Origin: Dictyostelium discoideum
Taxonomy: Eukaryota
DNA length: 64,000 nucleotides
Assembly (NCBI GenBank): GCA_000004695.1
Contig: CM000154.2
Coordinates: 3,680,001-3,744,000 of the forward strand
Direction of reading: 5' to 3'
A program made the position numbers and the translations under genes. Shown one piece after another: positions 13,576 through 58,709 of the stretch (position 1 is the first letter of the stretch; each line of letters opens with the position of its first letter). Under the pieces are notes generated by a model that saw nothing but the letters and a program-made list of their open reading frames with translations, had not been told where the DNA came from and searched no databases.

Positions 13576-13648
13576 GCCCGTTTAGCAAAGTTGGAATTGC
13601 GGCAGCCTTCTAAGCTGCAGGTCGTGGGATCGAGACCCACAATGGGTG
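13576..13648 (+). tRNA. tRNA-Arg (anticodon UCU)
   Basis: Folded by hand. Acceptor gcccgtt/aatgggt (two G-U pairs). D stem gcaa/ttgc with loop agttggaa. Anticodon stem gcagc/gctgc with loop cTTCTaa (U33, anticodon TCT, purine 37). 5-nt variable loop. T stem gtggg/cccac with loop atcgaga. Discriminator G. Total 73 nt, followed by T-rich run ctttttaaa (pol III terminator). Confidence 0.75.
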
Positions 13649-13677
13649 AAACTTTTTAAAGGTGTACCAATAATGGT

Positions 13678-13695
13678 CGCAGGTTCGATGTCATA
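13678..13695 (+). promoter_or_regulatory. External B box (ex-B) downstream of the tRNA gene
   Basis: gcaggttcgatgtc matches the GGTTCGANNC B-box consensus about 35 bp 3' of the tRNA. Extra downstream B boxes are a known feature of Dictyostelium tRNA genes. Confidence 0.45.
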
Positions 13696-13699
13696 TTAA

Positions 13700-15077
13700 A
13701 TCCAATTTATGTAAAGATCTTGGAAACGACCCTTATGGTCATCTCTTTATTGTAAAAAAAAAAACCACAACAACACTACTTAAACCGCACCGCGATCAAG
13801 AGGATACAAGATACACGTGAAAAGTAATTCATCCTTTTCTATCCTTAATCTCGGTCAATTTTAACCAATCTTTCAAAAAAAATCACCAATCCACCACGAT
13901 CTACAGATCTAACTTACCAAATCGCCGATTCAAAGGAATCCCATCGAGATGAATTCCTACGCAGACGCGGCTAAAATGGCCAACCCCTCCACCCATATGG
14001 ACGAGGCATCAGAGAACTTCATTAAGGAATTCTCCACAAAAACAGCAGAGATAAAGGAGACCTACCCCAAATTATCAATAGGCCTCAAAGACATCTCCAA
14101 ATACTGCGAGACCATATTGAACATGACTGCTCTCTCAACCTACGAGAAAAACAACGGATTCTACCCAATTACACTCGAATTCCCCAAAATGGATCTCATG
14201 GGGTTAGAAGAAATGAGAAAAACACTCTCAAACTACGATATCCCAATCGACAAGATATACATAGGCAAAGGAACTAGAAAAACGATCCACCTGATGATTA
14301 AAAACGAACAATCTCTCCTAAATATCATTAGAGATAGAAGCAAATTGGGAACCTTCATCACCTCCAGTAGAGACTACCACGTCCTCACAGGAAGAGTAAG
14401 AATTCCAAGAGAAAAGGCAGGAATAGTGGACGCCCTCATCAAAACTGCCTTTGCAGAAGAAATACCCTATGCAATATACCATACTATATACTCCACCGAC
14501 CACCTCCTAGTATTCGGTCTAATAGAATGCAAAATAGGCGATCAAATGAAATCTGGCCAACACAATACAGAAATCGCCAACTTTACCATCAGAACGGCCA
14601 CCAAAACCTACTCCTCACAAAAGAAAAATAAGAAAGTAGAGTCAAACAACACGGAAGAACCATTAGAAGATGAGATGACAGATGATCCTCCCAACATCCA
14701 AAACAGGATAGCAATCAAATCCTCTCAACCAAAACCACAACAACAAACAAACAACNNNNNNNNNNNNNNNNNNNNNNNNNNNNNNNNNNNNNNNNNNNNN
14801 NNNNNNNNNNNNNNNNNNNNNNNNNNNNNNNNNNNNNNNNNNNNNNNNNNNNNNNCTTCAACGATCAAGCTAAGAAAAACAACAGCTAATTACTATTGTA
14901 TTCCAGAATCATCTCTCCCAAATATTATATCTTTTGATCAATTCATATGATTAAAATAACCCTTCAGCTTAAATGATAAGCCTTTAAATAAATATTAAAT
15001 AAAACTCGTATTAACACAGATGGACATATATCAATCTTGTTAATCTAATATTAAAAAAAAAAAAAAAAAAAAAAAAT
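13700..15077 (+). mobile_element. tRNA-gene-targeted non-LTR retrotransposon (TRE3-like position, downstream of a tRNA), 5' part plus 3' end with poly(A); interior lost in an assembly gap
   Basis: A sharp composition switch begins about 60-120 bp downstream of the tRNA: GC-richer sequence with C-ending codons (atc, acc, ctc) unlike host genes. ORF 13949..14755 (MNSYADAAKMANPSTHMDEASENFIKEF...) runs into a 100-N gap at 14756-14855. After the gap about 200 bp of non-coding sequence ends in poly(A) 15053-15077. An internal A12 at 13753-13765 suggests a nested or earlier truncated insertion. Confidence 0.55.
14756..14855. other. Assembly gap (100 N) inside the retroelement
   Basis: Run of n. Confidence 1.
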
Positions 15078-15826
15078 ATTGTAAAAAAACATTAGAATTT
15101 ATAAATAAAACTATTAATGGACAAACAATAAAAAAAAAAAAAAAAAAAAATATTGTTATTCCATAAATAGTCTCCTTTGACCAATTAATTATATTGTAAA
15201 ATAATTTCATTATTTAATTTATCTATTTAATTCATTTAATTTTACCAACATATTTGAAACTGGATCTTAAAAAAGAAAAAAATAATTATTATAATTAGAA
15301 TAATACACTATATTTTAAAATTAAAATATAATGTAATTATTTTTAATTTGTAAAGTTTACTTTTTCCCCAATTTTTTTTTTTTTTATTTATTTCTCAATT
15401 TCCTAATACCTTTGAAAACTATTCCTTTTTCAAGTGTATTAATTAGTGGGGAATAATTAATAAAAACTATTTCTTTTTCAAATGTATCTAATTACACTGG
15501 AAAAAAAAAGAAATTAATAAATTTTATTATAAACAAATAAATTTAGTTATATACGTGGATGATTCCACAAAATAAATTGACGAAATTAGGATGGATTTTT
15601 CAGTTTTAAAAAAAAAAAAAAAAATTAAAAAAAAAAAAAAAAATACAATAATTTTTACGTGGAAAATTCTAAATAAAATAATTAATAAAAATTTAAATTC
15701 ATACTTAAAAAAAAAAAAAATAAATAAATAAAAAAAAAAAGAAATTTTAATTTCCAAAGAAAATTAATATCAGTCCTTTTACCAAAATTTTTTTATTTTC
15801 ACTTTTTTATTTTTTTTTAAAATTCG

Positions 15827-15902: not shown

Positions 15903-17426
15903 ATGAACAAATTAATTAAAATCATTGTAATTTTTACAATTATTGTAAATGTAATTAATGGTTTAGCATATCCAAAATATAATGCAGAAGAATTAATATT
16001 GGATGGTAGTGGTAGTTTCCCAGCACAATGGTTCACTCAAACATTAGATCATTTTAATTTTCAAAATAATCAAACATTTCAACAAAAATATTATGTAAAT
16101 GATCAATATTATAACTATAAAAATGGTGGACCAATCATTTTATACATTAATGGTGAAGGTCCAGTTAGTTCACCACCATATTCTTCTGATGATGGTGTTG
16201 TAATTTATGCTCAAGCAGTAAGTAGTAATTCTACTAATTTTAAAATATTTAAATATTAAAAATTATATATATATATATATTAAAAATTTATAAAAAAAAT
16301 AAAAAAAAAGTTAAATTGTATGATTGTTACATTAGAACATAGATTTTATGGTGAATCATCACCATTTTCAGAATTAACAATTGAAAATTTACAATATCTT
16401 AGTCATCAACAAGCATTGGAAGATTTAGCAACATTTGTTGTTGATTTTCAAAGTAAACTTGTTGGTGCAGGTCATATTGTTACAATTGGTGGATCATATA
16501 GTGGAGCATTATCAGCATGGTTCCGTATAAAGTATCCACATATTACTGTTGGTTCAATTGCATCATCAGGTGTTGTACATTCAATTTTAGATTTCACTGC
16601 ATTCGATGCCTATGTATCATATGCTGTTGGTCCAGAATGTACAAAAGCACTTCAAGCTGTAACTAGTGCTGCTGAAGATGAATATTTTGCTGGAGGTATT
16701 AGAGAACAACAAATGAAACAAATACTTCAAGCTGAATCATTGGTTGATATTGGTGATTTCTTTTATTGGTTAGCCGATTCGATGATGGAGGGTGACCAAT
16801 ACGGCTACATAGATGAATTATGTAGTCCATTGGTTGACGCTATCAATAGCGGTACCAGTGGTATCGATTTGATTACAGTCTACTCCAATTACACTATCAA
16901 CACTTGGGGTAAAGTTTTAGGTACTCCAGATGAATATTCAACAGCTTGGCAACAAAATGTCACCTATGACCCATCAAAGAGTGCCGATAGAGCTTGGTGG
17001 TATCAAACTTGTAGTTCATTAGGTTGGATGCAAGCTGCACCATCTGAAAATTCAATTAGATCTTCATTGGTAAATATGACCTATTTCCAAACTCATTGTC
17101 AACAATTATTCGGTCAAGCCATTTGGCCTCCAAATGTAAATGCTGTAAATACTCAATACGGTGGTGATCAATCAAATCCATTATTGAATGCAGCTGGTAC
17201 TAATATTTTATTCACCAATGGTCATGCTGATCCATGGAGTCAAGCTTCAATCGTAAATTCAAATTATCCAAATGTTGAACCCTCTGCAATGACCACTTGT
17301 CGTAAATGTGGTCATTGTGTAGATTTAAGAGGTTGTCCAGGTGGTTGTGATTTACCAAATAATTTAGATCAAGTTAGATCACTTTCATTAAAATCAATTG
17401 CACAATGGTTAAATTTAAATAATTAA
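15903..17426 (+). CDS. Serine carboxypeptidase S28 family (prolylcarboxypeptidase-like), secreted, 2 exons
   Basis: Exons 15903..16217 and 16311..17426, with donor gtaagt and a 93-nt intron. Signal peptide MNKLIKIIVIFTIIVNVINGLA. S28 motifs include FTQTLDHFNF, GGPIILYINGEGP, the catalytic-serine region IVTIGGSYSGALSAWFRIKYPH, and C-terminal DPW and HC. Confidence 0.85.
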
Positions 17427-17609
17427 AAATAAAATAAAATATAAAATAAAATAAAAATTAAACAAATAATAATAATTTTTGTAAATCTATTTTTTTTATT
17501 TTATTTTATTTTTTTTTATGTTTTTCTTTTAAAATTTCAATTTCTTTTCATTTAAATTTTTATCAAAAATCATTTTATTTTTTAATCTAGATTAAAAATA
17601 GGTGACAAA

Positions 17610-17640
<31 letters not shown>

Positions 17641-18099
17641 GAAAGGGGTGAGAAATTAATTTTTGATCAGAAAAAAAAAAAAATATAAAAGCCAATAAAA
17701 AATAATTTATTAATCAATAATCATATATCTATTGAATTTCAAACAATAAATGCATTTTATTCAAAATGATGGTATCAAATTAAGTTATTTTTCAATCAAA
17801 AAAAGGTTCTAATTAAAAAAACTTTTGGAAAGTCGCTATCACTAACTTTGTGCACAGATATTTCCATTCACAGTATATAATAATGTAGGTAAATTAATAA
17901 AAAAAAAAAAAAAATTAATAATAATTATAATATTATATAATTAAATAAAAAACAACCCCTCTAATATTTTTTTTTTTTTTTTTTTTCTTCTCTCAATTAG
18001 TACACTAAATTTTAATACCTATCAAAAACATGGATTTATATTTTTTTTTTTTTAATATTTTAAGATAAATCATTGTTTATTAAATCCAATAAACTATAT

Positions 18100-18408
18100 T
18101 ATTTTATAATTTATAAAAAAAAAGTCAAATATCTCCAAACTCGTCTCTATTGGTCTTTATCTTTCTTTAAAAACTTAAATCATTGTTTACAAATTGCAGT
18201 AAACAACATTTCGTTACAGTTAAGGGAAATAATATTCAAAAGAACAAACAAAAACAAAAACAACAACAGCAACAACAAATTCTTTCAAACTTGTCTCTCA
18301 TGTGCTGTCTCTTTTCTTTAAAAACTTAAATCACAGTTTACAAATTGCAGTAAACTATATTTCGTTACAATCAAAGGAAAAAATGGTGCAAAGAACAAAA
18401 ATAAAAAG

Positions 18409-18465
<57 letters not shown>

Positions 18466-18600
18466 TCTTTCAAACTTGTTTCTCGTTCGCTGTCTCTTTT
18501 CTTTAATAACTTAAACCATAGTTTACAAATTGCAGTAAACTACATTTCGTTATAATAAAATTAAAAAATAGTGGTAAGAAACAACAACAAAAAGAAGAAC
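18100..18600 (+). repeat. Tandem repeat, about 185-bp unit, about 3 copies, each with a conserved hairpin and a (CAA)n tail
   Basis: Units at about 18100-18290, 18279-18470 and 18463-18600. They share a core ttctttcaaacttgtctct...gctgtctcttttctttaaaaacttaaatca.agtttacaaattgcagtaaac.a.atttcgttaca. GTTTAC-aaattgca-GTAAAC forms a 6-7 bp inverted repeat. Unit 2 carries (CAA)19. Confidence 0.7.
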
Positions 18601-18711
18601 AAAAAATTAATAAATTTAATCTTTTACGTCTCTTATGAGATTTAATTTAAACATATTATTTTCAATTTTTATTAATTTAAATTTATATTATCATTTTTAA
18701 ATTTCATTATT

Positions 18712-18759
<48 letters not shown>

Positions 18760-19101
18760 TTATTGATAATTGTTTATTTGATGTTGAAGGTGGAATTTTT
18801 AATTCAATTCTTTTGATATCTTCTGGTGGATTTCAAATGACAATAGCAGAAGTTTTTAAAAGAATTAGACCAAAAATACCACCCTTGATGTCTAATATAC
18901 AAAAAATGAATGTAAATAATTAAATTCCAGATCAAAAATATATATTTATACGTATATATGAATGATTACATTCATTTTTATGATATGATTTGCATATTTT
19001 TGGTGTTCTATTTATCTAAACTAATTCATAATAAAAACAATTAAAATTAAAAAAAAAATTGAAGGATAAATAATTAAATTTTAAAAATAAAATTTAAGAT
19101 T

Positions 19102-19136
<35 letters not shown>

Positions 19137-19323
19137 TCTGATTTGTTAATGTTTTTATAATAAAATAATGTAAATTTAAAAAAAAAAAACCAATCAATTT
19201 CAACCTTTTTTGAAAAAAATAAAATAAAATAAAAAAAATAAAAATTAAAGTATTATTTACAAATTTATTTAAGTATTAAGTATTTACAAATCAATTATTT
19301 ATTATTTTTTTTTTTTATAATTT

Positions 19324-35407: not shown

Positions 35408-36193
35408 AATAATAATTAAATTTAAAAAATACGAATATGATAATATTATTGGTAATAGTATATTTGTGGTGAAAATAATAATGATTATTTTAATTTTTTT
35501 ATTTTATTTTAAAATTTTTGGTTGTCTATGTTTGTTAATAAAGATATTGTTTCTTTGATAAATTGTAAAATATTATAAAAAAGACCAATAGGACTAAAAT
35601 CATTTATAATAAATAAAATAAAATAAATATATATATATACACACACCACACATAACACATCACATTTCGATTTTTTTTGTTTAGAGTTATACATTTATTT
35701 AGTATATATATATATTGGGCAAGGTTAAAAAAAAATAAAAAAAAATAAAAAAAAACCAAACGAAACAAAAATAAATAAAAAAATAAAATGATGATTATTT
35801 TAAGATTAAATTATTTTTTTTCTATTTTAAGACTATATGTAAAAATAAAATTCGAAAATTAATGCGGAAATATAATAGTGGTCATTATTTTAAATATAAT
35901 TTAAATAAAAAAAAAAATAAAAAAAAAAGTGTCTTTTACTAAATTTAAATTTGGTGGATATTGCGAATGTGTATTTATTAAATTTAACTTCTATTGAAAT
36001 TTTTTTTTTTTTTTTTTTTTTTATTTTATTTTGTTTTGTTTTCAATTAATATTTTAATTTTTATTTTTTATTTTTTTATTTAATTTTAAAAAATAAAATG
36101 ATATGATTGTGATGAAGATTATGATTATGATTATGCATTTACTATTTTAGTAATTTTTTTTATTATTTTTTTTAAATTTAAAATTTAAAATTT

Positions 36194-36293
36194 NNNNNNN
36201 NNNNNNNNNNNNNNNNNNNNNNNNNNNNNNNNNNNNNNNNNNNNNNNNNNNNNNNNNNNNNNNNNNNNNNNNNNNNNNNNNNNNNNNNNNNNN
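36194..36293. other. Assembly gap (100 N)
   Basis: Run of n. Confidence 1.
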
Positions 36294-46336: not shown

Positions 46337-46518
46337 TTTCAAAACTTTTTAATTGTTAAAAAATATTGTTCTTTTTAAGAATAAATTTGATTATTTATAA
46401 AATAAATTATCAACTGATTTTACTTTATTATTTTCATCGTCTTCTTTCTTTTCTGTTGACAAAAAAAAAAAAAATTATTTTTATTTTATTTTAATTTAAA
46501 TATTTACAATTTTATTTA

Positions 46519-49302
<2,784 letters not shown>

Positions 49303-50537
49303 TTTTTTTTTTTTTTCTTTTTTTTTTTATGTGAGTGTGTATTTATATATTTAATATTTAATATTTATTATATTGATATCATAATAAAAAGAAAATATTT
49401 TAGTATTTTGGGATTAAATTAAAAAAGTTTTTTTCATTATGACGTTATCACCTAATCATTTTGAAAAATTAATTTTATTTATTTTTTTATTTTTTATTTT
49501 TTTTTTTTGGTGCTGTTTTTTCCATTTTTAATTTTTTTTTTTTTTTTTTATTTTTATGGTGTGAAAGTCTGAGCTTTTTTGTTAATTTTTTATTTAACTA
49601 AACATTAATTCCAATTCAAAAAAATTTAACTAAACATTAATTTAAATTAATCACAATTGTTAAATAAATGAAAAAAAAAAAGATAATTTTTTTTTTTTAA
49701 AAGTGTCAGATTAGAATGTTTTAATAATGATTTAATTTTATTCATTTTTAATATGAATTTAGTATGGATAAATAGATCACCCAAAAATATACAAAATGAT
49801 ATAAAAAATAAAAAAAATTAATGATTGCAAGAGGGAATATATAAATTTTTTTTTTTTGTACACAAAAAATTAAAAAAACAATAAAAATAAAAAATTTAAA
49901 AAAAATAATAAAAAATAAAACAATTTAATTAAATCAATTTTTTTTTAATTTTACATTTTAAAACAAATTATTTATTTTTTTTGTGATGGATTAATTGGAT
50001 TTGAGATAGAAACCATAATTTCATTTTTTGATTGGAATGAGTTGAGTCTATTTTCATTATAAACAATTGATTGAGAGTTTGAATTTGAATTATTCATTCC
50101 CATTGACAATAAAGATTCTAAATAATTTTTAAAAAAAAAAAAAAATAAGTTTAATTTTCCAAAAAAAAAAAAAAAAAAAAAAAACAAAAAAAAAAAAAAA
50201 AAGTTTAATTTAACTTACTGAAGATTGACATTTATTACTTGGATACAATTACAATTTAATATTACAATGTTTTTTTTTTTTATCTAATAATTTTTCTTTT
50301 TGTTTCTTTTTTTATTAAATACTTTTTTTTTTTTTTTTTTTTTTATTTCTTTTGTGGTGCATTTTATTTTTTTTAATTTTTTATTTTATTTTATATTTAA
50401 TATCAAATTTTATGGCCAATCTTTTTTTTTTTTCACATAAATAAGATGTAATATCTAAAAATTCTAATTTTAAATTCACCACTAGATAATCTCACATTTT
50501 ATCCTCATCAGCCACATAACCCTCAAATTCTAAAAAT

Positions 50538-50576
<39 letters not shown>

Positions 50577-50692
50577 AAACCTTTTCAAATATATAAAATT
50601 ACAAAATCATTTTGCCACACTATTGAAAAGTTTGTCTTTTATTTTTATTTTTATTTTTTTTTTTTTTTTTTTTGTTTTTTTTTTTATTTTAA

Positions 50693-52178
50693 TTAACTGT
50701 GATTAAACATTTTATTTAAAGATTGAGCCATATGAACTGGGCCAGAGAATGGTTTATTAATAATATTTGACCAAACATCATTTATTATATCAAAATGAGA
50801 GAAATTTATAAATGCATAAGGATCAACCCCAACCAAAAATATGGCTTCTTGTCTTGGTGTTAATAATGAAGAAATTGATGAAAATGTATCCAACATTAAA
50901 CCACCGTTCAAAGTGAGTTTATTTTTTAAAGATTCTAATTTACCTGCGAGTTCTAATTGTTTATCAATAGCAGGTAGTGAATAAGAATCAATTGGTGTTG
51001 TTGTTGTTGAATTGTACACTAATTCAGTTGGATTTAATGAAGATAATGGATCAGATGGATATGAGAATATAAATTTATAAAAAAATGATTTTATCTCTAA
51101 ATCTAACATTTGAATTTCTTTAAACATTGATGCACTAACTTTAGTATGTTGAAAACGAATTGAATCCAATTTATTTGATTGTTCAGGTGTAATATTTGCT
51201 TCTTTTTTAAAAGTGTTATACCAATTATGATCATTAGTTACCTTTTGATTATCACCATCATCATTATTATCATTGAAAATATTTAAAACAAATGGACAAA
51301 ATTGACCTGGTGTATAACCTACGATTGATAATCTTAATTGAACGTATGGATTTGCAACTTTTTCAGCCTCGTATTCAATATGTGAGTATCTCTCTTCAAT
51401 AACACGATGATATTGATGTAATAGATAAATCAATGATCTATCATCATTCCTCTCCAATGATAGTTTTAATTGATTTGTGATGGTTTTACAATCTGTCATC
51501 ATTTTCATTATATCATTACTTGGTTTCATTAAATCGACAGAACCTGTTTTTCTTAGAGTTTGATTTTCTTTTTGAATTTTACTATTCTCCATTTCTAATA
51601 ATGATAATTTATCCTCAATCTCCTTTATATAATCTTTCTTTTTTTGTCTATAATTTCTACTTGCTTTATTTTGATTCATTTTTTTAATTGATTCTGTTGA
51701 TTTTTCTTGTTTTTTAGTTTCATTTATAATTTTGGTTTTTTCATTTGTTTCTTCTAAATTTATTTTTGTTGTTTTTGTTGTTGTTGTTGTTAATATTGGT
51801 GTTGGTGTTGGCGTTGGTGTAATTGGTGCAATTGTTGTTGGCGTAATTAGAGTTGGTGTTATTGTTGGAAATGTAGTAAGAGTTGGTGTAATTGTTGGCG
51901 TAATTATTGGATTATTGGTATTATCCAAACTAATTTTGTATTGAGGTATTTTGTAACACTCTTGTTGTTGTTGTTGTTGTTGCTGTTGTTGTATATTTAT
52001 TGGATTATCATTAAAGGGTGGAAATATTGGTTTATTTTGGGAAATTGCATTATTATTTACATTACTAACTACATTACTATTTACATTATTATTTACATTA
52101 TTTGCACCAAGATTTATATTATTTAAATTATTTATACTGTTTACATTATTAATATTGTCGGTTGTTTTATTATTATTA

Positions 52179-52275
<97 letters not shown>

Positions 52276-52643
52276 TATTATTACTATTATTACTATTGTT
52301 ATTGTTATTCATATTATAATTTATACTAGTAATATTGTTATTATTATTATAATTTGAAAATATTTGATTACATTGATCAATATATTGTGAAGGTAATTCA
52401 TAAGGTTTTTGATATTGGTCTTGATATTGTTGTTGACGTTGTTGATATTGATCTTGATATTGTTGTTGATAATTTTGTAATTGTTGTTGGATTTGTGTTT
52501 GTTGTTCTTGTTGTTGCTTTTGTAATGATTCAAGTCGTTCATTGAAATTAAAATTATTATTATTTAAGTAATTATTTGATTCGATACTTTGGACATTTAT
52601 TCCATCATTTGTATATTGTTGTGGGAATTGTTGTTGTTGTTGC

Positions 52644-52719
<76 letters not shown>

Positions 52720-52730
52720 GCTGTTGTTGC

Positions 52731-52761
<31 letters not shown>

Positions 52762-52843
52762 GAAGTTGTGAAAAATCATCCAATAAAAGTAACCACGTAT
52801 TATTTTCTGGCGGAATTGGTAAGAAATTTTGATATCCATCCAT
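50693..52843 (-). CDS. bZIP transcription factor, paralog 2, single exon, 716 aa
   Basis: MDGYQNFLPIPPENNTWLLLLDDFSQLQQ(Q)n. Basic region [41 protein letters not shown]. The C-terminal domain is shared with paralogs 1, 3 and 4 (NPYVQLRLSIVGYTPGQ...[39 protein letters not shown]). Confidence 0.75.
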
Positions 52844-52941
52844 TATTGTTCATATAATTAATATACTATGAATAAAAAATTAAAAAAATTAAAAAAATAA
52901 AAAAAATAAAAAATAAAAAATAAAAAAAAAAAAAATAAATA

Positions 52942-52978
<37 letters not shown>

Positions 52979-53306
52979 ATAATTTTCAATAATTATTTTT
53001 ACTTAATAATTTCCTCTAAAGGATATTCCAAGATTTTAAAATTATCAATACGTGTTGAATCTTAACAAAGAATTAAACTTTTTTTTTTTATATATATATA
53101 TACTTTTTTTTCACATTCATTTTTTTAAATAATTTTGAGTATTTTTGGGTTCTCAATGTATTTATTTTAATCATATTAATAAATAAATAAAATTAAATGA
53201 TTGTTGTAAATGGAAAAAAAAAAAAATGGAAATAAAGCTTGAAATGTATTTTTTTAATTTGTTTAGAAAAAAAAAAAAAAAAAAAAAAAGGAAAACATTA
53301 TTTTAT

Positions 53307-55560
53307 TTATTGATTTGTTGGGTTTCTAAATAATTTTTTTAAAGTCTCACCAATATCAATTGGACCAGAAAAAGAATTTTGAATTATGTTTGACCAAACA
53401 TCTTTAACCAATTCGAAATCTAAAGAATTAGCACAAGCGAAAATGTTAACTTTTGTTAAGAGAACTGCTTCTTGTTTTGGTGTTAAAATTGCAGAAATTG
53501 AAGAGAAAGTGTCTAAAAATAAACTACAATTAAGAGTTAATTTATTTTTCAAAGTTTCCAATTTATTAATGATATCCAACTGTTCATTGAGATCTAATGG
53601 ACCAAAGATTTCAATTGGAAGTACTTTTGAAGCTGGTATACCTTCGATATTATTATCAGTGATATCATTTCCAAGTTGTAATGCAAATACCTTTTCAAAA
53701 AAGAAAGTTTTAATCTCTGAATCTAATTTCTCAAGATCGAATTGAATCTTTTCACTGACCGCACAATATTGAGCTCTTAACGAGTCCAATTTATTTGACT
53801 GTTCAAGAGTTATATTAACCTCTTTTTTAAATAAATTAATCCATGAATCAGCCTCTGGGCCTTGGAAAATATTAATTCCTGATAGGCTTTGTTTTGGAGT
53901 GTAACCAACTTTTGCCAATCTCATTTGTGTGTATGGATTGGCGACTTTGTCAACCTCTTTTTCCATATATAAATATCTTTTTTCAACAACACAATGATAT
54001 TGATGTAAAAGATAGATCAGAGTTCTTTCATCATTAATATCTAAACATTTTTTCATTTCAAGTAAGATTTTATTACCATCTACCATTAATTTCATTAGCT
54101 CAGGTCCTAATTTCATAGCTTCAGCACCTCCAATCTTTTTTAATGATTCATTCTCTTTATGAAGTTTATCATTTTCAATTGATAATGCTAACATTCTCTC
54201 TTCAATTTCTTTTATATAATCTTTCTTTTTTTGTCTATAATTTCTACTTGCAATATTTTGATTTATCTTTTTTAATGATTTTCTTGATGGACTATCAATT
54301 GGTATTTGTAATGATAAATCAATTGGCACAATTTTTGAATTTTGTAAATTTGTTTGATCCAAATTTCCAGTTTCATTTTTGTTTAGTTTTGTTATAGTTT
54401 TTGTATTTGTTGTTGTTGTTTTTGAGTTTGGTTTTAATGTTGAGTTTGTTGTTGTTGTTGAGATTGAGGTTGAGTTGGATGGAGTTGATGTTAATGTTGG
54501 TGTTACTGTTGGTGTTAATGTTGGCGTTACTGTTGGTGTTAATGTTGGTGTTACTGTTGGCGTTAATGTTGGTGTTGTATTATTTGACAAAATTGAATTA
54601 TTATTATTATTATACATTATTAATTTTTCAATGTTAATATTATTGTTATTTATAAAATCAATTGGGAGTTTATTTAAATTTGATTGTTGTAAAATATCTA
54701 CATTTGTTGGCAAAATTGGAAAAAATTGACTATTATTATTGTTATTATTATTAATATTATTATTAACTTGATCACCAATTGAAAATGATGCTATTGATGA
54801 ATATGACGGTGATTGACTTATTGGAGGTGGATCAACATTTTGTTGTTGTTGTTGTTGTAGTAGTTGTTTTTGTTGTGGTGCTACTTGAGACTGTGTTTGT
54901 AATTGTGGTGAAATTGGTGTTGATTGTGGTAGTGTTTGAGGTTGTTGATTATTTTCTGATAGATAATTTATTATATTTATATTGTTTCCTGATAATAGTT
55001 GATTATAATCGATTTGATTGTCATCACTCGTTATTAATAATGAAGATGGGGATATATATGGTTGTTGATATTGTTGTTGATAATCTTGTTGACGTTGTTC
55101 ATATTGTTTTTGACATTGGTGTTGGTAACCTCTTAAATGTTGTTGTATTGTATGTTGTTGTTGTTGTAATTGTTCTAACAATTGAAGTTGTTCCATCAAT
55201 ACTTGTTGATCATATGTATTATTACCATTATTATTATTATTATTATTTACATCATTATAAATATCATTAATAAAATTATTATTATTATTATTATTATTAT
55301 TAATACTATTCTCATTATTATAATTAATATTATTAATACTATTTTCATTATTACTATTATTATAATTAATACTATTATTATTTAAATTTACATTATTATT
55401 ATTTATAATATTATTTAAATTTACATTATTATTATTATTATTATTATTTTTATTAATATTATTACTATTATTATTATTATTTATAATATTATTTAAATTT
55501 ACATTATTACTATTATTATTTATAATATTACTAATAATATTATTAATAGTATTTAAATTA

Positions 55561-55631
<71 letters not shown>

Positions 55632-55838
55632 AGTATTATTATTATTAATAGTATTTAAATTATCATTATTATTATTATTATTAATAATATTATTTTGGTT
55701 TAAATTAATATTGGTATTATTTTGTTGTTGTGGTTGTTGAGATTTTTGAAATTGATTTTGTTGAAGTTGAGAAAAATCTTTTAACAAAAGTGACCAAATA
55801 TTTTTTTCAGGTGTGGGTAATGGATTTTTACTATCCAT
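53307..55838 (-). CDS. bZIP transcription factor, paralog 3, single exon, 843 aa
   Basis: [27 protein letters not shown]. Basic region [42 protein letters not shown]-terminal domain [17 protein letters not shown]...[38 protein letters not shown]. There is a (TPTLTPTV)n Thr-Pro repeat. Confidence 0.75.
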
Positions 55839-56206
55839 CTTTTATAATTATTTAAATAAAATTAAAAATAAACTATTTTTAAAATATTTGTTCAAAAAAA
55901 AAAAAAAATTTTGAAATTGGTGAAAGAACGTGGACACATAATTTCGATGTGTAAATATTAAGGTGTTGATAAAAAAAAAAAATAAAAAAAAAATAAAAAA
56001 AAATAAAAAAAAAAATAAAAAAAAATAAAAATAAAAATAAAAATTTATTATTGTTTTTGGTGCTTTGCGGTTAAAGCAAATCCCAATTCAAATTGAGGTT
56101 AACAACTGCAATTATTTTTTTTTTTTTTTAAATTTTTTTTTTTTTTTTTAATTTCTGAAATTAAATTAAAAATAGATTTTTTTATTTTCATTTTTTTTTT
56201 TTATTT

Positions 56207-58432
56207 TTAAGGTTTTTCAAAAATTTGACTTAAATCACCAATTTTAAATGGATCACTTGATTTTTTCATTTTTGATTTATTTGCCCAAACATTTGTGATC
56301 ATTTCAAACTTTTTCAAATTGAAACATGAGAATATATCGATTTCAACCAAAAGTAAAGCTTCTTGTTTTGGTGTTAGTATTTTACTAAGTGAGGAGAAAG
56401 TTTCAAACATTAGACAACTATTTTCAAAGAATTTGTTTTTTAATAATTTCAATTTACAAGCAAATTCAATTTGTTGAGAAAGGTCCAAAGGTTTTGAAGT
56501 TTTCAAAGAGATACTATAAGATTGAAAAACAAAAATATTTTGAAAAAAGAATTTTTTCACCTCAGAATCCAAATCATGAATTTCATCCAACAGTTTAAGA
56601 TTATATTCGCAATATTTTTCACGAATGATATCTAATTGAACCGATTGTTGGGATGTGATATTAGCCTTCTCTTTGAAAAGGTTAAACCAGCTATCAGACT
56701 CTATGCCTTGGAAAATGTTGGTTAGGAAAGGTGTAGATTTCAACACGTATCCAATAGAAGCCAACCTTAGTTGTATTTCCGGACTTGCGATTTGTTCAGC
56801 GTCTTTATCAATGGACGAATATCTTTTAGCCACTGCACCATGATACATGTGCAATAAATAAATTAAGTTTTTTTCATTATCTTCTTTTAAAGCCTCGCCT
56901 ATTTGTCTAACAATACTTCTAATCTCTAGCATTAGTTGCTTCTTTTCTGGTGACGGTTTTAAAATAGCCATTGTACCACCTTCATGTTCTTGTTGTCTAA
57001 TTGATTCATTCTCTTTTTTTAATTTTTCATTCTCTAAAGTTAATTCCATCATTTTATCCTCAATATCCTTTATATGATCCTTTTTTCTTTGTCTAAAATT
57101 TCTATTTGCTATATTTTGATTAATTCTTTTTATTGATTTTTTTGATTCATCATCAAATGTTAAATTAAATTGTTGTTGTTGTTGTTGTTGTTTTTGATAT
57201 TCTAATTGTTGTTGTTCTAATTGTTGTAATGTTAATATTTTATTTATATCTGTTGTTTGTTGTTGTTGTTGTTGTTGCTGTTGCTGTTGTTGTGATGGTG
57301 ATATTTGATTTATATCAGTTGAGTTAGAGTTTATTATAGTTGGTACAGGTGATGATGGAGTAGGTGGTGAAGTATTTTCTTTTTGTTTTTCTATATTATC
57401 TCTTTTTTGGTCTACATTCAATGTATTTATTGTGTTATTCGTTTTTTGAGTTTGAAAATATGATAAAAGGTGTTGATCTAACTTTGGTGTATTAAAAAAT
57501 ATTTGTTGAGAAAGAGGCATTGAATTCGATGACTGCTTTGATTGATTCTTTTTATTTATTTCTTTTTGCTGTATTGTTTGTGGTGGTAATTGCTGCTGCT
57601 GTATTTGTGGCTGTTGTAGTTGTATATGTTGTTGTAGTTGTATATGTTGTTGTGGTTGTATCTGCTGCTGTGGTTGTATCTGTTGTTGTACTTGTACCTG
57701 TGGCTGTTCTATTTGTATTTGTTTCTGTATTTGTTGTGGCTGTGGTTGTGTTGGTATTTGTTGTGATTGTATTTGAATATGTTGTAGTTGTGATTGTTGA
57801 GGTAGCTCATGTTGTATTGGTAGTTGTTGAAACTGAGGCTGTTGTTGGTGTTGTTGGTGTTGTTGGTGTTGTTGTTGTAGTTGTTGTAGTTGTTGTTGTG
57901 GTTGTTGTTGTTGTTGTGGTGGTGATGATGGTGATGGTGGTTGTTGTTGTTGTTGTAAGGATTGTGGTGGTTGTTGTAGATTTTCTTGACCTAAATGAAA
58001 TTGTTGTTGAGGAACTAAATCATTTTTTTCAGAATAAATAAAAGAAGGTGGTGTATATGGTTTTTGATATTGTTGTTGATATTGCTGTTGACGTTGTTGA
58101 TATTGTTGTTGATATTGTTGTTGAAAATTATGTAATTGTTGTTGAATTTGGTCATGTTGCTGTTGTTGCTGTTGTTGTAGAAATTGAATTTGTTCAATGA
58201 TTTGAGGTTTATTTTCAATTGATGTATCACTATTTAATGATTCCTCTAAACTTTGAAAATTTAATCCACTTATATTTGTAGTGGTAACATCGCCAGTGTT
58301 AAAATCTATACTATTTATAAAGTTTTCTTGGTTGTTTTGAACAATTGGTAATTGTTGCAATTGTGAAACATCATCAAATAAAAATAACCATGCATTTTCT
58401 GGTTCTAATATGGAATTGAAAGATTCATCCAT
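56207..58432 (-). CDS. bZIP transcription factor, paralog 4, single exon, 741 aa
   Basis: MDESFNSILEPENAWLFLFDDVSQLQQ. Basic region KRINQNIANRNFRQRKKDHIKDIEDKMMELTLENEKLKKEN. C-terminal domain SPEIQLRLASIGYVLKS...[39 protein letters not shown]. It is Q/P-rich. Confidence 0.75.
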   Translation of the reverse strand: MDESFNSILEPENAWLFLFDDVSQLQQLPIVQNNQENFINSIDFNTGDVTTTNISGLNFQSLEESLNSDTSIENKPQIIEQIQFLQQQQQQQHDQIQQQLHNFQQQYQQQYQQRQQQYQQQYQKPYTPPSFIYSEKNDLVPQQQFHLGQENLQQPPQSLQQQQQPPSPSSPPQQQQQPQQQLQQLQQQHQQHQQHQQQPQFQQLPIQHELPQQSQLQHIQIQSQQIPTQPQPQQIQKQIQIEQPQVQVQQQIQPQQQIQPQQHIQLQQHIQLQQPQIQQQQLPPQTIQQKEINKKNQSKQSSNSMPLSQQIFFNTPKLDQHLLSYFQTQKTNNTINTLNVDQKRDNIEKQKENTSPPTPSSPVPTIINSNSTDINQISPSQQQQQQQQQQQQTTDINKILTLQQLEQQQLEYQKQQQQQQQFNLTFDDESKKSIKRINQNIANRNFRQRKKDHIKDIEDKMMELTLENEKLKKENESIRQQEHEGGTMAILKPSPEKKQLMLEIRSIVRQIGEALKEDNEKNLIYLLHMYHGAVAKRYSSIDKDAEQIASPEIQLRLASIGYVLKSTPFLTNIFQGIESDSWFNLFKEKANITSQQSVQLDIIREKYCEYNLKLLDEIHDLDSEVKKFFFQNIFVFQSYSISLKTSKPLDLSQQIEFACKLKLLKNKFFENSCLMFETFSSLSKILTPKQEALLLVEIDIFSCFNLKKFEMITNVWANKSKMKKSSDPFKIGDLSQIFEKP

Positions 58433-58709
58433 TATTATTACAATTATGCATTGTTTGTATATTAACAGTTTTTAAAATGAAATAAAAAAAAAAATAAAAA
58501 AAAAATAAAAAAAAAAAAAAAAAATGAAATAAAAAAAATTAAAAATAAAAAAAAAAATAAAAAATAAAAATAAATAATAAATAAAAAAAAAAAAAAAATA
58601 ATTAAAAAATCCTTTTTTTTTTTTTTGAGACAGGGGAAAACCGTCCAAAAATGTTGAAAACTGTTTGTCAAATTTTGATTTATTTATTTTTTTTTTTTTT
58701 TCAATTAAT

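Follow-up and report, generated by a model that had tools for sequence, protein, structure and literature searches.

Does a short array of hairpin-bearing repeats next to a peptidase gene of Dictyostelium discoideum carry a function, as an RNA or as a DNA site, or is it simply a repeat? The array lies in the window, by which we mean the whole 64,000-nucleotide stretch of DNA analyzed, and it is intergenic, as the initial annotation had placed it, between an S28 peptidase gene (Q54GI7/XP_635876, stop at 17426) and the downstream genes. Elsewhere in the window, at 46500-58450 on the - strand, four paralogous genes stand in tandem; their products, of 686-843 aa, are rich in polyQ and polyN and share a conserved basic-zipper-like C-terminal half. 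The array itself occupies 18062-18605 on the + strand, where a partial unit, U0, is followed head to tail by three full units, U1 to U3, which start at 18127, 18278, and 18463 with spacings of 151 and 185 nt:

18062..18126, + strand: U0, a partial unit that looks like an AT-decayed copy, made up of the palindrome region and a short 3' flank and found by repeat family search
18127..18277, + strand: U1, 151 nt, CT-rich in its 5' part, with the palindrome at 18184-18204 and a tail at 18237-18277 that is CA-rich
18278..18462, + strand: U2, 185 nt, with the palindrome at 18335-18355 and a (CAA)18 microsatellite tail at 18411-18464
18463..18605, + strand: U3, the last unit, with the palindrome at 18520-18540 and a short A/C-rich tail

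Each full unit runs from a CT-rich 5' part through a core of ~57 nt to a C/A-rich tail, and tandem-repeat calling (TRF) returned a period of 185 with a score of 551 as well as 23.7 imperfect triplet copies. Within the core lies AGTTTACAAATTGCAGTAAAC, in which an 8-nt loop is enclosed by a 6-bp inverted repeat, the pairing extending to 7 bp in U2 and to 8 bp in U1 and U3; the perfect inverted repeat of 6-7 bp first described is therefore correct for U2 and too short for the other two units. This 21-mer occurs three times with at most one mismatch (0.01 expected by chance), and the pattern GTTTAC-N(4-12)-GTAAAC occurs three times as well (0.05 expected). The direct repeats that had been noticed from the letters are thus real, each of the three full units having the palindrome GTTTAC-N8-GTAAAC and a C/A-rich tail, but the fourth, partial unit, which a covariance model (R1) matches with 58.3 bits, had been missed, and the array spans ~18062-18605. 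Likewise, the 85-90% identity claimed for the repeats applies to U2 against U3 (88.8% over 107 nt) and to the ~57-nt core of U1 (93%), but not to the whole of U1, which is only ~70% identical to U2 and U3, and the pure triplet run of U2 is one repeat shorter than the (CAA)19 first counted. The G+C content of the array is 27.6%, which is exon-like, versus 7-10% in the flanks. A covariance model search found no further unit copies in the 260 kb covered, within which the array is a single locus, and the core, which it had been proposed to search for as a dispersed family, has no copy beyond the array in the same 260 kb.

Orthologous loci were fetched by means of the peptidase protein and the cluster members. 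The lineages compared were AX4 (with its re-assembly, L011), strains L008 and L009, and D. cf. discoideum L001, and the outgroup loci were those of D. citrinum (L007 and L010), D. firmibasis (L002), and D. purpureum (L003). AX4, L011, L008, L009, and L001 all carry the array, with U0 and three units in the same order in all four lineages; the question whether other strains possess it is thereby answered, and the unit number is constant. No copy of the array was found within 10 kb on either side in the loci of D. citrinum (two strains), D. firmibasis, and D. purpureum. The peptidase is 91% identical in D. citrinum and 86% identical in D. firmibasis, and in both species BLAST aligns the sequence just 3' of the peptidase stop to the window only from ~18650-19150 on, while in D. 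purpureum synteny is broken at the locus. The array accordingly forms part of a larger feature:

17430..18900 (approximate boundaries), no strand assigned: lineage-specific segment of ~1.45 kb, delimited by BLAST of the intergenic region against the orthologous loci and by direct reading of the D. citrinum sequence

Three components make up this segment: a moderately conserved block A (17639-17898), the array itself, and a long inverted repeat. Among the lineages compared, only D. discoideum and D. cf. discoideum have it; D. citrinum and D. firmibasis lack it at the syntenic site, and none of its three components has a match in any of the four outgroup loci. For lineage-specific sequence, the spacer behind the S28 peptidase gene is a hotspot, with ~1.45 kb extra in D. 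discoideum and, in D. citrinum L010 (11630-12340), a different, GC-richer insert of ~240 nt that is absent from L007 (11509-12060). The long inverted repeat (18758-18925, + strand) is imperfect and directly follows a T44 run. It folds strongly in AX4 (-44.3 kcal/mol, z about -4.7 to -4.9), with z-scores of -2.1 and -2.2 in L008 and L009 and of -0.9 to 0.3 in L001, and has 0.29 variable columns between strains. It is not among the published D. discoideum miRNAs, and it could be either a young source of hairpin RNA or siRNA or a decaying inverted duplication.

The array is non-coding. Stop codons occur in all three forward and all three reverse frames of every unit, which bears out the earlier view that the ORFs called here are merely translations of the repeat, and the periods of 151 and 185 nt are not multiples of 3. 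The only ATG-initiated ORF encodes 43 aa (MVQRTK...) and has lost its start codon in the orthologous unit of L001; no exact match to it is on record among public assemblies. Translated as a composite, the array had no protein homologue among 5.8 billion sequences, and with stops in all frames and no homologues a coding role of the array was rejected.

NCBI nevertheless has + strand gene models across the region in two of the four assemblies, encoding 109 aa in L011 and 123 aa in L001. We regard these models as ab initio artefacts, because the last "exon" of the 109-aa model is frame-shifted in the other strains and no protein of this kind was found in the databases searched; rebuilding the 109-aa model was uninformative, as 113 splice combinations fit. 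Block A, a 260-nt stretch on the + strand with 21% GC that follows a T26 run, contains the ATG from which the models in L011 and L001 start, carries splice-like signals (CACTAAC..CAG and AG/GTAAAT), and has 0.085 variable columns among strains; it has no Rfam match and is absent in the sister species. The 54-codon ORF at 18759-18920 was considered as a real last exon and rejected, since it is formed by the inverted repeat, is frame-shifted in L008, L009, and L001, and has no homologues, two protein matches to it being spurious and to repetitive proteins.

The triplet tracts differ greatly between strains. The pure CAA run comprises 18 repeats after U2 in AX4, 8 and 6 repeats in L008, 6 and 4 in L009, and 32 after U1 in L001, so that in the four lineages sampled the tracts range from 4 to 32 repeats and the array is polymorphic in length while constant in unit number. 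Outside the CAA tracts, the array as a whole evolves at about the neutral rate, because the remaining parts of the units vary at 39 of 346 columns among the four lineages (0.113), close to the 19 of 186 four-fold degenerate sites that vary in the adjacent peptidase gene among the same lineages (0.102). The 65-nt cores have 18 variable columns out of 193 (0.093, four lineages), and variability is higher in the AT-rich flanks, at 0.17-0.32. The impression of a conserved array amid drifting flanks that arises between strains is mostly due to the high mutability and poor alignability of those flanks. The units group by position and not by strain, and the triplication is therefore older than the split from D. 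cf. discoideum. Furthermore, variants confined to particular strains are common to U2 and U3 (in L001, TTGAGAAC; in L008 and L009, TAAACCA), a trace of gene conversion and concerted evolution.

We consider it somewhat probable that the array arose recently, within one lineage, as a low-copy tandem duplication of the minisatellite type, and that it has microsatellite tails and evolves almost neutrally. Of the possibilities named in the initial annotation, the minisatellite fits best, given a single locus in 260 kb, lineage specificity, polymorphic CAA tracts, a near-neutral rate, and gene conversion, but the array is not a simple copy-number-polymorphic minisatellite, the unit number being the same in all four lineages. 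From this we infer both the absence of a function and a mechanism of origin: (i) a non-coding segment would have arisen at the site after the split of D. discoideum and D. citrinum, or else have been lost in the relatives; (ii) a unit of ~115 nt would have multiplied head to tail, with unequal recombination or replication slippage as the likeliest cause, leaving three full copies and one older, decayed partial copy; (iii) the C/A-rich unit ends would behave as microsatellites, growing and shrinking by slippage; and (iv) occasional gene conversion would hold neighboring units alike. The array could then be explained without any sequence-specific function, and the small palindrome may be just the best-kept part of the unit, possibly under weak constraint. 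On the other hand, the neutral reading does not account for three features. The palindrome is better kept than the rest of the unit, the unit number is fixed, unlike that of a typical unstable minisatellite, and the base composition is exon-like even though AT-biased decay should have worn it down; of the 11 polarized substitutions, only 5 are GC to AT, though so few events are of little use. Functional readings therefore stay alive.

The preservation concerns the 21-nt palindrome alone, and it is clear between paralogous units and marginal between strains. In AX4, U1 and U2 agree at 20 of 21 positions of the palindrome, versus 34 of 57 upstream and 26 of 36 downstream, and to this extent the earlier claim that the hairpin is conserved while its flanks drift is upheld. 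Between strains, where the same claim receives only marginal backing, the palindromes of U1 to U3 vary at 2 of 63 positions against ~6.4 expected at the synonymous rate, a deficit with P of ~0.05 by our own Poisson estimate; with U0 included, the figure is 7 of 84.

The functional reading that survives best, though we hold it to be unlikely, makes the array part of a + strand RNA polymerase II lncRNA of ~0.6-0.7 kb, extending from ~17990, just after a T20 run, to a point after an AATAAA at 18609, in which four hairpins with 8-bp stems and 8-nt loops, separated by C/A-rich spacers, would act as a multivalent platform for an RNA-binding protein. Its predicted signals are as follows:

17967..17986, + strand: T20 run, a candidate oligo-T element ahead of a + strand start, present in other strains
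18609..18614, + strand: AATAAA, a candidate polyadenylation signal for a + strand transcript

D. discoideum transcripts have been described with this architecture of a T run and then a start: T-rich stretches of up to 26 nt immediately precede pri-miRNA start sites (Liao et al. 2018, PMC6161686). The AATAAA is found just 3' of the last unit and is kept in L008, but it reads AATAAT in L001, which weakens the case. The exon-like GC content, the better keeping of the palindrome relative to the rest of the unit, and the placing of + strand gene models across the region by annotation pipelines in two assemblies are also consistent with a transcript, whereas the neutral overall rate of substitution is not what such a transcript would lead one to expect. 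The same is true of the folds: compared with shuffled controls on both strands, whole units have z-scores of -0.8 to -2.2 and fold no better than the shuffles, the sole consistent element being the internal hairpin of 6-8 bp with its 8-nt loop.

Changes in the stem bear on this reading more directly. With G.U wobbles counted, 15 of 16 hairpins still pair across strains, the exception being U1 of L001, in which an A to T change breaks a stem pair and which speaks against an RNA structure. The 13 distinct hairpin sequences have 94% of cells paired, four of the eight pairs invariant, and two pairs changed on both sides. At the loop-closing pair, a C to T change in U0 (L009 and L001) and in U1 (L008 and L009) gives a G.U wobble in a + strand RNA and would give an A.C mismatch on the - strand. 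In U0 of AX4, whose stem reads GTTTAT..ATAAAC and whose core is almost canonical in the L008 and L009 orthologues, the partner G has also become A and the Watson-Crick pair is restored, along a path from C-G through U.G to U-A; this only G to A change in a stem thus sits opposite a partner that was already U. The stem changes in the hairpins are GC-to-AT transitions, presumably the commonest type of mutation in so AT-rich a genome. Covariation is not significant, since the sequences are related and an equal score is reached by 19 of 500 shuffles, and the compensatory changes for which the initial annotation had proposed to look come down to two stem pairs. Taken together, the stem changes would suit a DNA site slightly less well than a hairpin in a + strand RNA, the events being too few to carry more.

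The catalogue of developmental lncRNAs (PMC5295588, supplementary file 15) lists one lncRNA in chr5 3.52-3.93 Mb, at 3715454-3716186. With the window start taken as chr5:3,680,001, this lncRNA, DDB_G3971523 (732 nt, + strand), would map to 35454-36186 of the window, and under this inferred but most plausible mapping no lncRNA of the catalogue lies at the array, which counts against an lncRNA there. So mapped, DDB_G3971523 ends 8 nt before an N gap that starts at 36195, and the gap would be a natural stopping place for a read-based model; identity of the array with the chr5:3715454-3716186 lncRNA was accordingly rejected, the position next to the gap being the more likely one. Supplementary file 19 of the same work names no gene in chr5 3.34-4.02 Mb as a neighbor of DDB_G3971523, and no identifiers of the series DDB_G02900xx-02902xx are present in the supplementary files searched. 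In its evolutionary form, which we think rather unlikely, the proposal would be that of a species-specific lncRNA born de novo in the ~1.45 kb segment after D. discoideum and D. citrinum split, with the hairpin modules (8-bp stem, AAAUUGCA loop) selected as multivalent protein sites and the CAA linkers drifting and expanding freely.

Selection on the palindrome could also act at the level of DNA, and an improbable alternative is that the TGTTTAC-N8-GTAAACA palindromes are cis-regulatory, being bound by a putative dimeric protein and influencing a neighboring transcription unit, for example, an RNA of the inverted repeat that would start after the T44 run at 18758. A dyad-symmetric motif that is the best-conserved part of the unit and recurs 3-4 times at a spacing of 110-185 bp, far above chance, would suit such a role, as would the position of the array 160-700 bp upstream of the T44 run and the strongly folding inverted repeat behind it. 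However, the change in U0 is symmetric in both half-sites and so keeps pairing rather than a binding sequence, the putative target is poorly conserved, its variable columns being as many as given above and its fold weakening to a z of -0.9 in L001, and the element is absent in sister species that retain the neighboring genes. We know of no Dictyostelium factor with this specificity.

It is still less probable that the array is a mobile-element remnant, or an internal repeat of one, brought in with the ~1.45 kb species-specific insertion. The absence of the whole segment at the syntenic site in sister species, a GC content unlike that of the flanks, the different extra segment in the spacer of one D. 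citrinum strain, and a tRNA-associated retroelement 2-4 kb upstream would all agree with an insertion of this sort. Against it, the array shows no similarity to the adjacent full-length retroelement in L011 or to anything else in the window, has no protein-level matches and no terminal repeats beyond A/T runs, and is found at only one locus in the 260 kb searched. In the region of the retroelement (13576-15800), the tRNA gene occupies 13576-13648, and behind it an N gap interrupts the retroelement ORF (13949-14950). In L011 (4105-9062), which represents a re-assembled AX4-like chromosome, the site holds a 1059-aa reverse-transcriptase ORF, and at the corresponding site of L001, L008, and L009 there is no retroelement; it is therefore a polymorphic tRNA-associated retrotransposon insertion. 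Separately, two intergenic stretches of the window, 18977-19051 on the + strand and 49731-49808 on the - strand, are 82% identical over ~78 nt (TTTTGGTGTTCTATTTATCTAAACTAATTCATAATAAAAA..., E 3e-14), and this pair may represent a small dispersed element or a common regulatory or terminator motif.

There is no sign that the array encodes a known RNA or protein. With Rfam 15 at curated thresholds no family was matched by the array, while the tRNA elsewhere was, and a permissive scan gave only CrcZ at 9-21 bits against a threshold of 95, a score stemming from the CA-rich CAA run, with no structured match of the array to any known RNA family. The nearest DUSE element (WCCCAYAA) is at 13635, inside the tRNA gene and 4.5 kb from the array, and inspection of the array sequence showed neither box C/D nor H/ACA motifs. 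Neither the D. discoideum miRNA supplements nor the searchable literature contains the core, a sequence search of the literature with the palindrome and the arms of the inverted repeat returned nothing relevant, and exact 20-mer scans of metagenome and prokaryote collections yielded three chance matches with unrelated flanks. The least supported among the readings, and a very improbable one, is hence the earlier lead idea of a small RNA gene cluster in which each unit would give a 60-70 nt RNA related to Class I RNAs, snoRNAs, or miRNA precursors: three repeats with a hairpin in a core of ~57-65 nt had suggested it, but there is no Rfam family scored even weakly save CA-rich noise, no DUSE within 4 kb, no snoRNA box, no trace of the core in the miRNA supplements or searchable literature, fold z-scores that are unremarkable, and a stem of 6-8 bp that is internal, does not link the 5' end to the 3' end, and is far too short for a miRNA precursor.

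The array is thus probably an ordinary species-specific tandem repeat, and a new instance of a minisatellite-type repeat. If it is only a neutral repeat, it adds one more example of the repeat-prone genome of D. discoideum, and strains could be marked by its hypervariable (CAA)n tracts. Should selection really act on the palindrome, on the other hand, one would have a structured non-coding element that was born inside a single species and whose birth can be dated; it is present in D. discoideum and D. cf. discoideum and absent in D. citrinum, and four natural alleles are on hand for testing how such elements arise. The array would gain in interest only if selection on the hairpin emerged from transcript data or from a larger panel of strains.

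Among known systems, the dictyostelid Class I RNAs, reportedly described by Aspegren in 2004, resemble the array in belonging to Dictyostelium, in having a conserved core of ~60 nt with a short stem, and in being present in several copies. Class I RNAs are, however, 42-65 nt long, with a stem linking the 5' end to the 3' end and an 11-nt motif beside the 5' stem (Kjellin 2021, PMC7919456); their expression is reported to require the DUSE, located ~60 nt upstream or upstream of a TGTG box, and they are conserved across all Dictyostelia (PMC7919456). The array, in contrast, is restricted to D. discoideum, has its stem internally, lacks a DUSE, and matches no model. The miRNA loci of D. discoideum (Liao 2018, PMC6161686) are likewise intergenic, with a T-rich stretch ahead of the putative start, and the inverted repeat at 18758-18925 that neighbors the array folds like a precursor hairpin in AX4; unlike the hairpins of ~20 bp or more that yield ~21-nt RNAs, those of the array have 6-8 bp, both the array and the neighboring inverted repeat are absent from the published lists, and the fold of the latter is not conserved across strains. 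The array fails the defining features of Class I RNAs, of miRNA precursors, and of every testable Rfam family.

Regulatory lncRNAs built of tandem modules share with the array a repeated short hairpin, unstructured spacers, and, on the same strand, an upstream T run and a downstream AATAAA; the array, whose transcript is putative, differs in having only 3-4 modules and no significant covariation. The closest relatives of the array would be minisatellites, in a genome well known to be rich in simple repeats. The identical unit number in all four lineages, a GC content that is exon-like in place of the usual A/T-rich composition of intergenic repeats, and a 21-nt palindrome that is noticeably better kept set the array apart from them. 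With minisatellites it shares head-to-tail non-coding units of 100-200 bp at a single lineage-specific locus, triplet tracts that vary between strains, gene conversion between neighbors, and near-neutral substitution.
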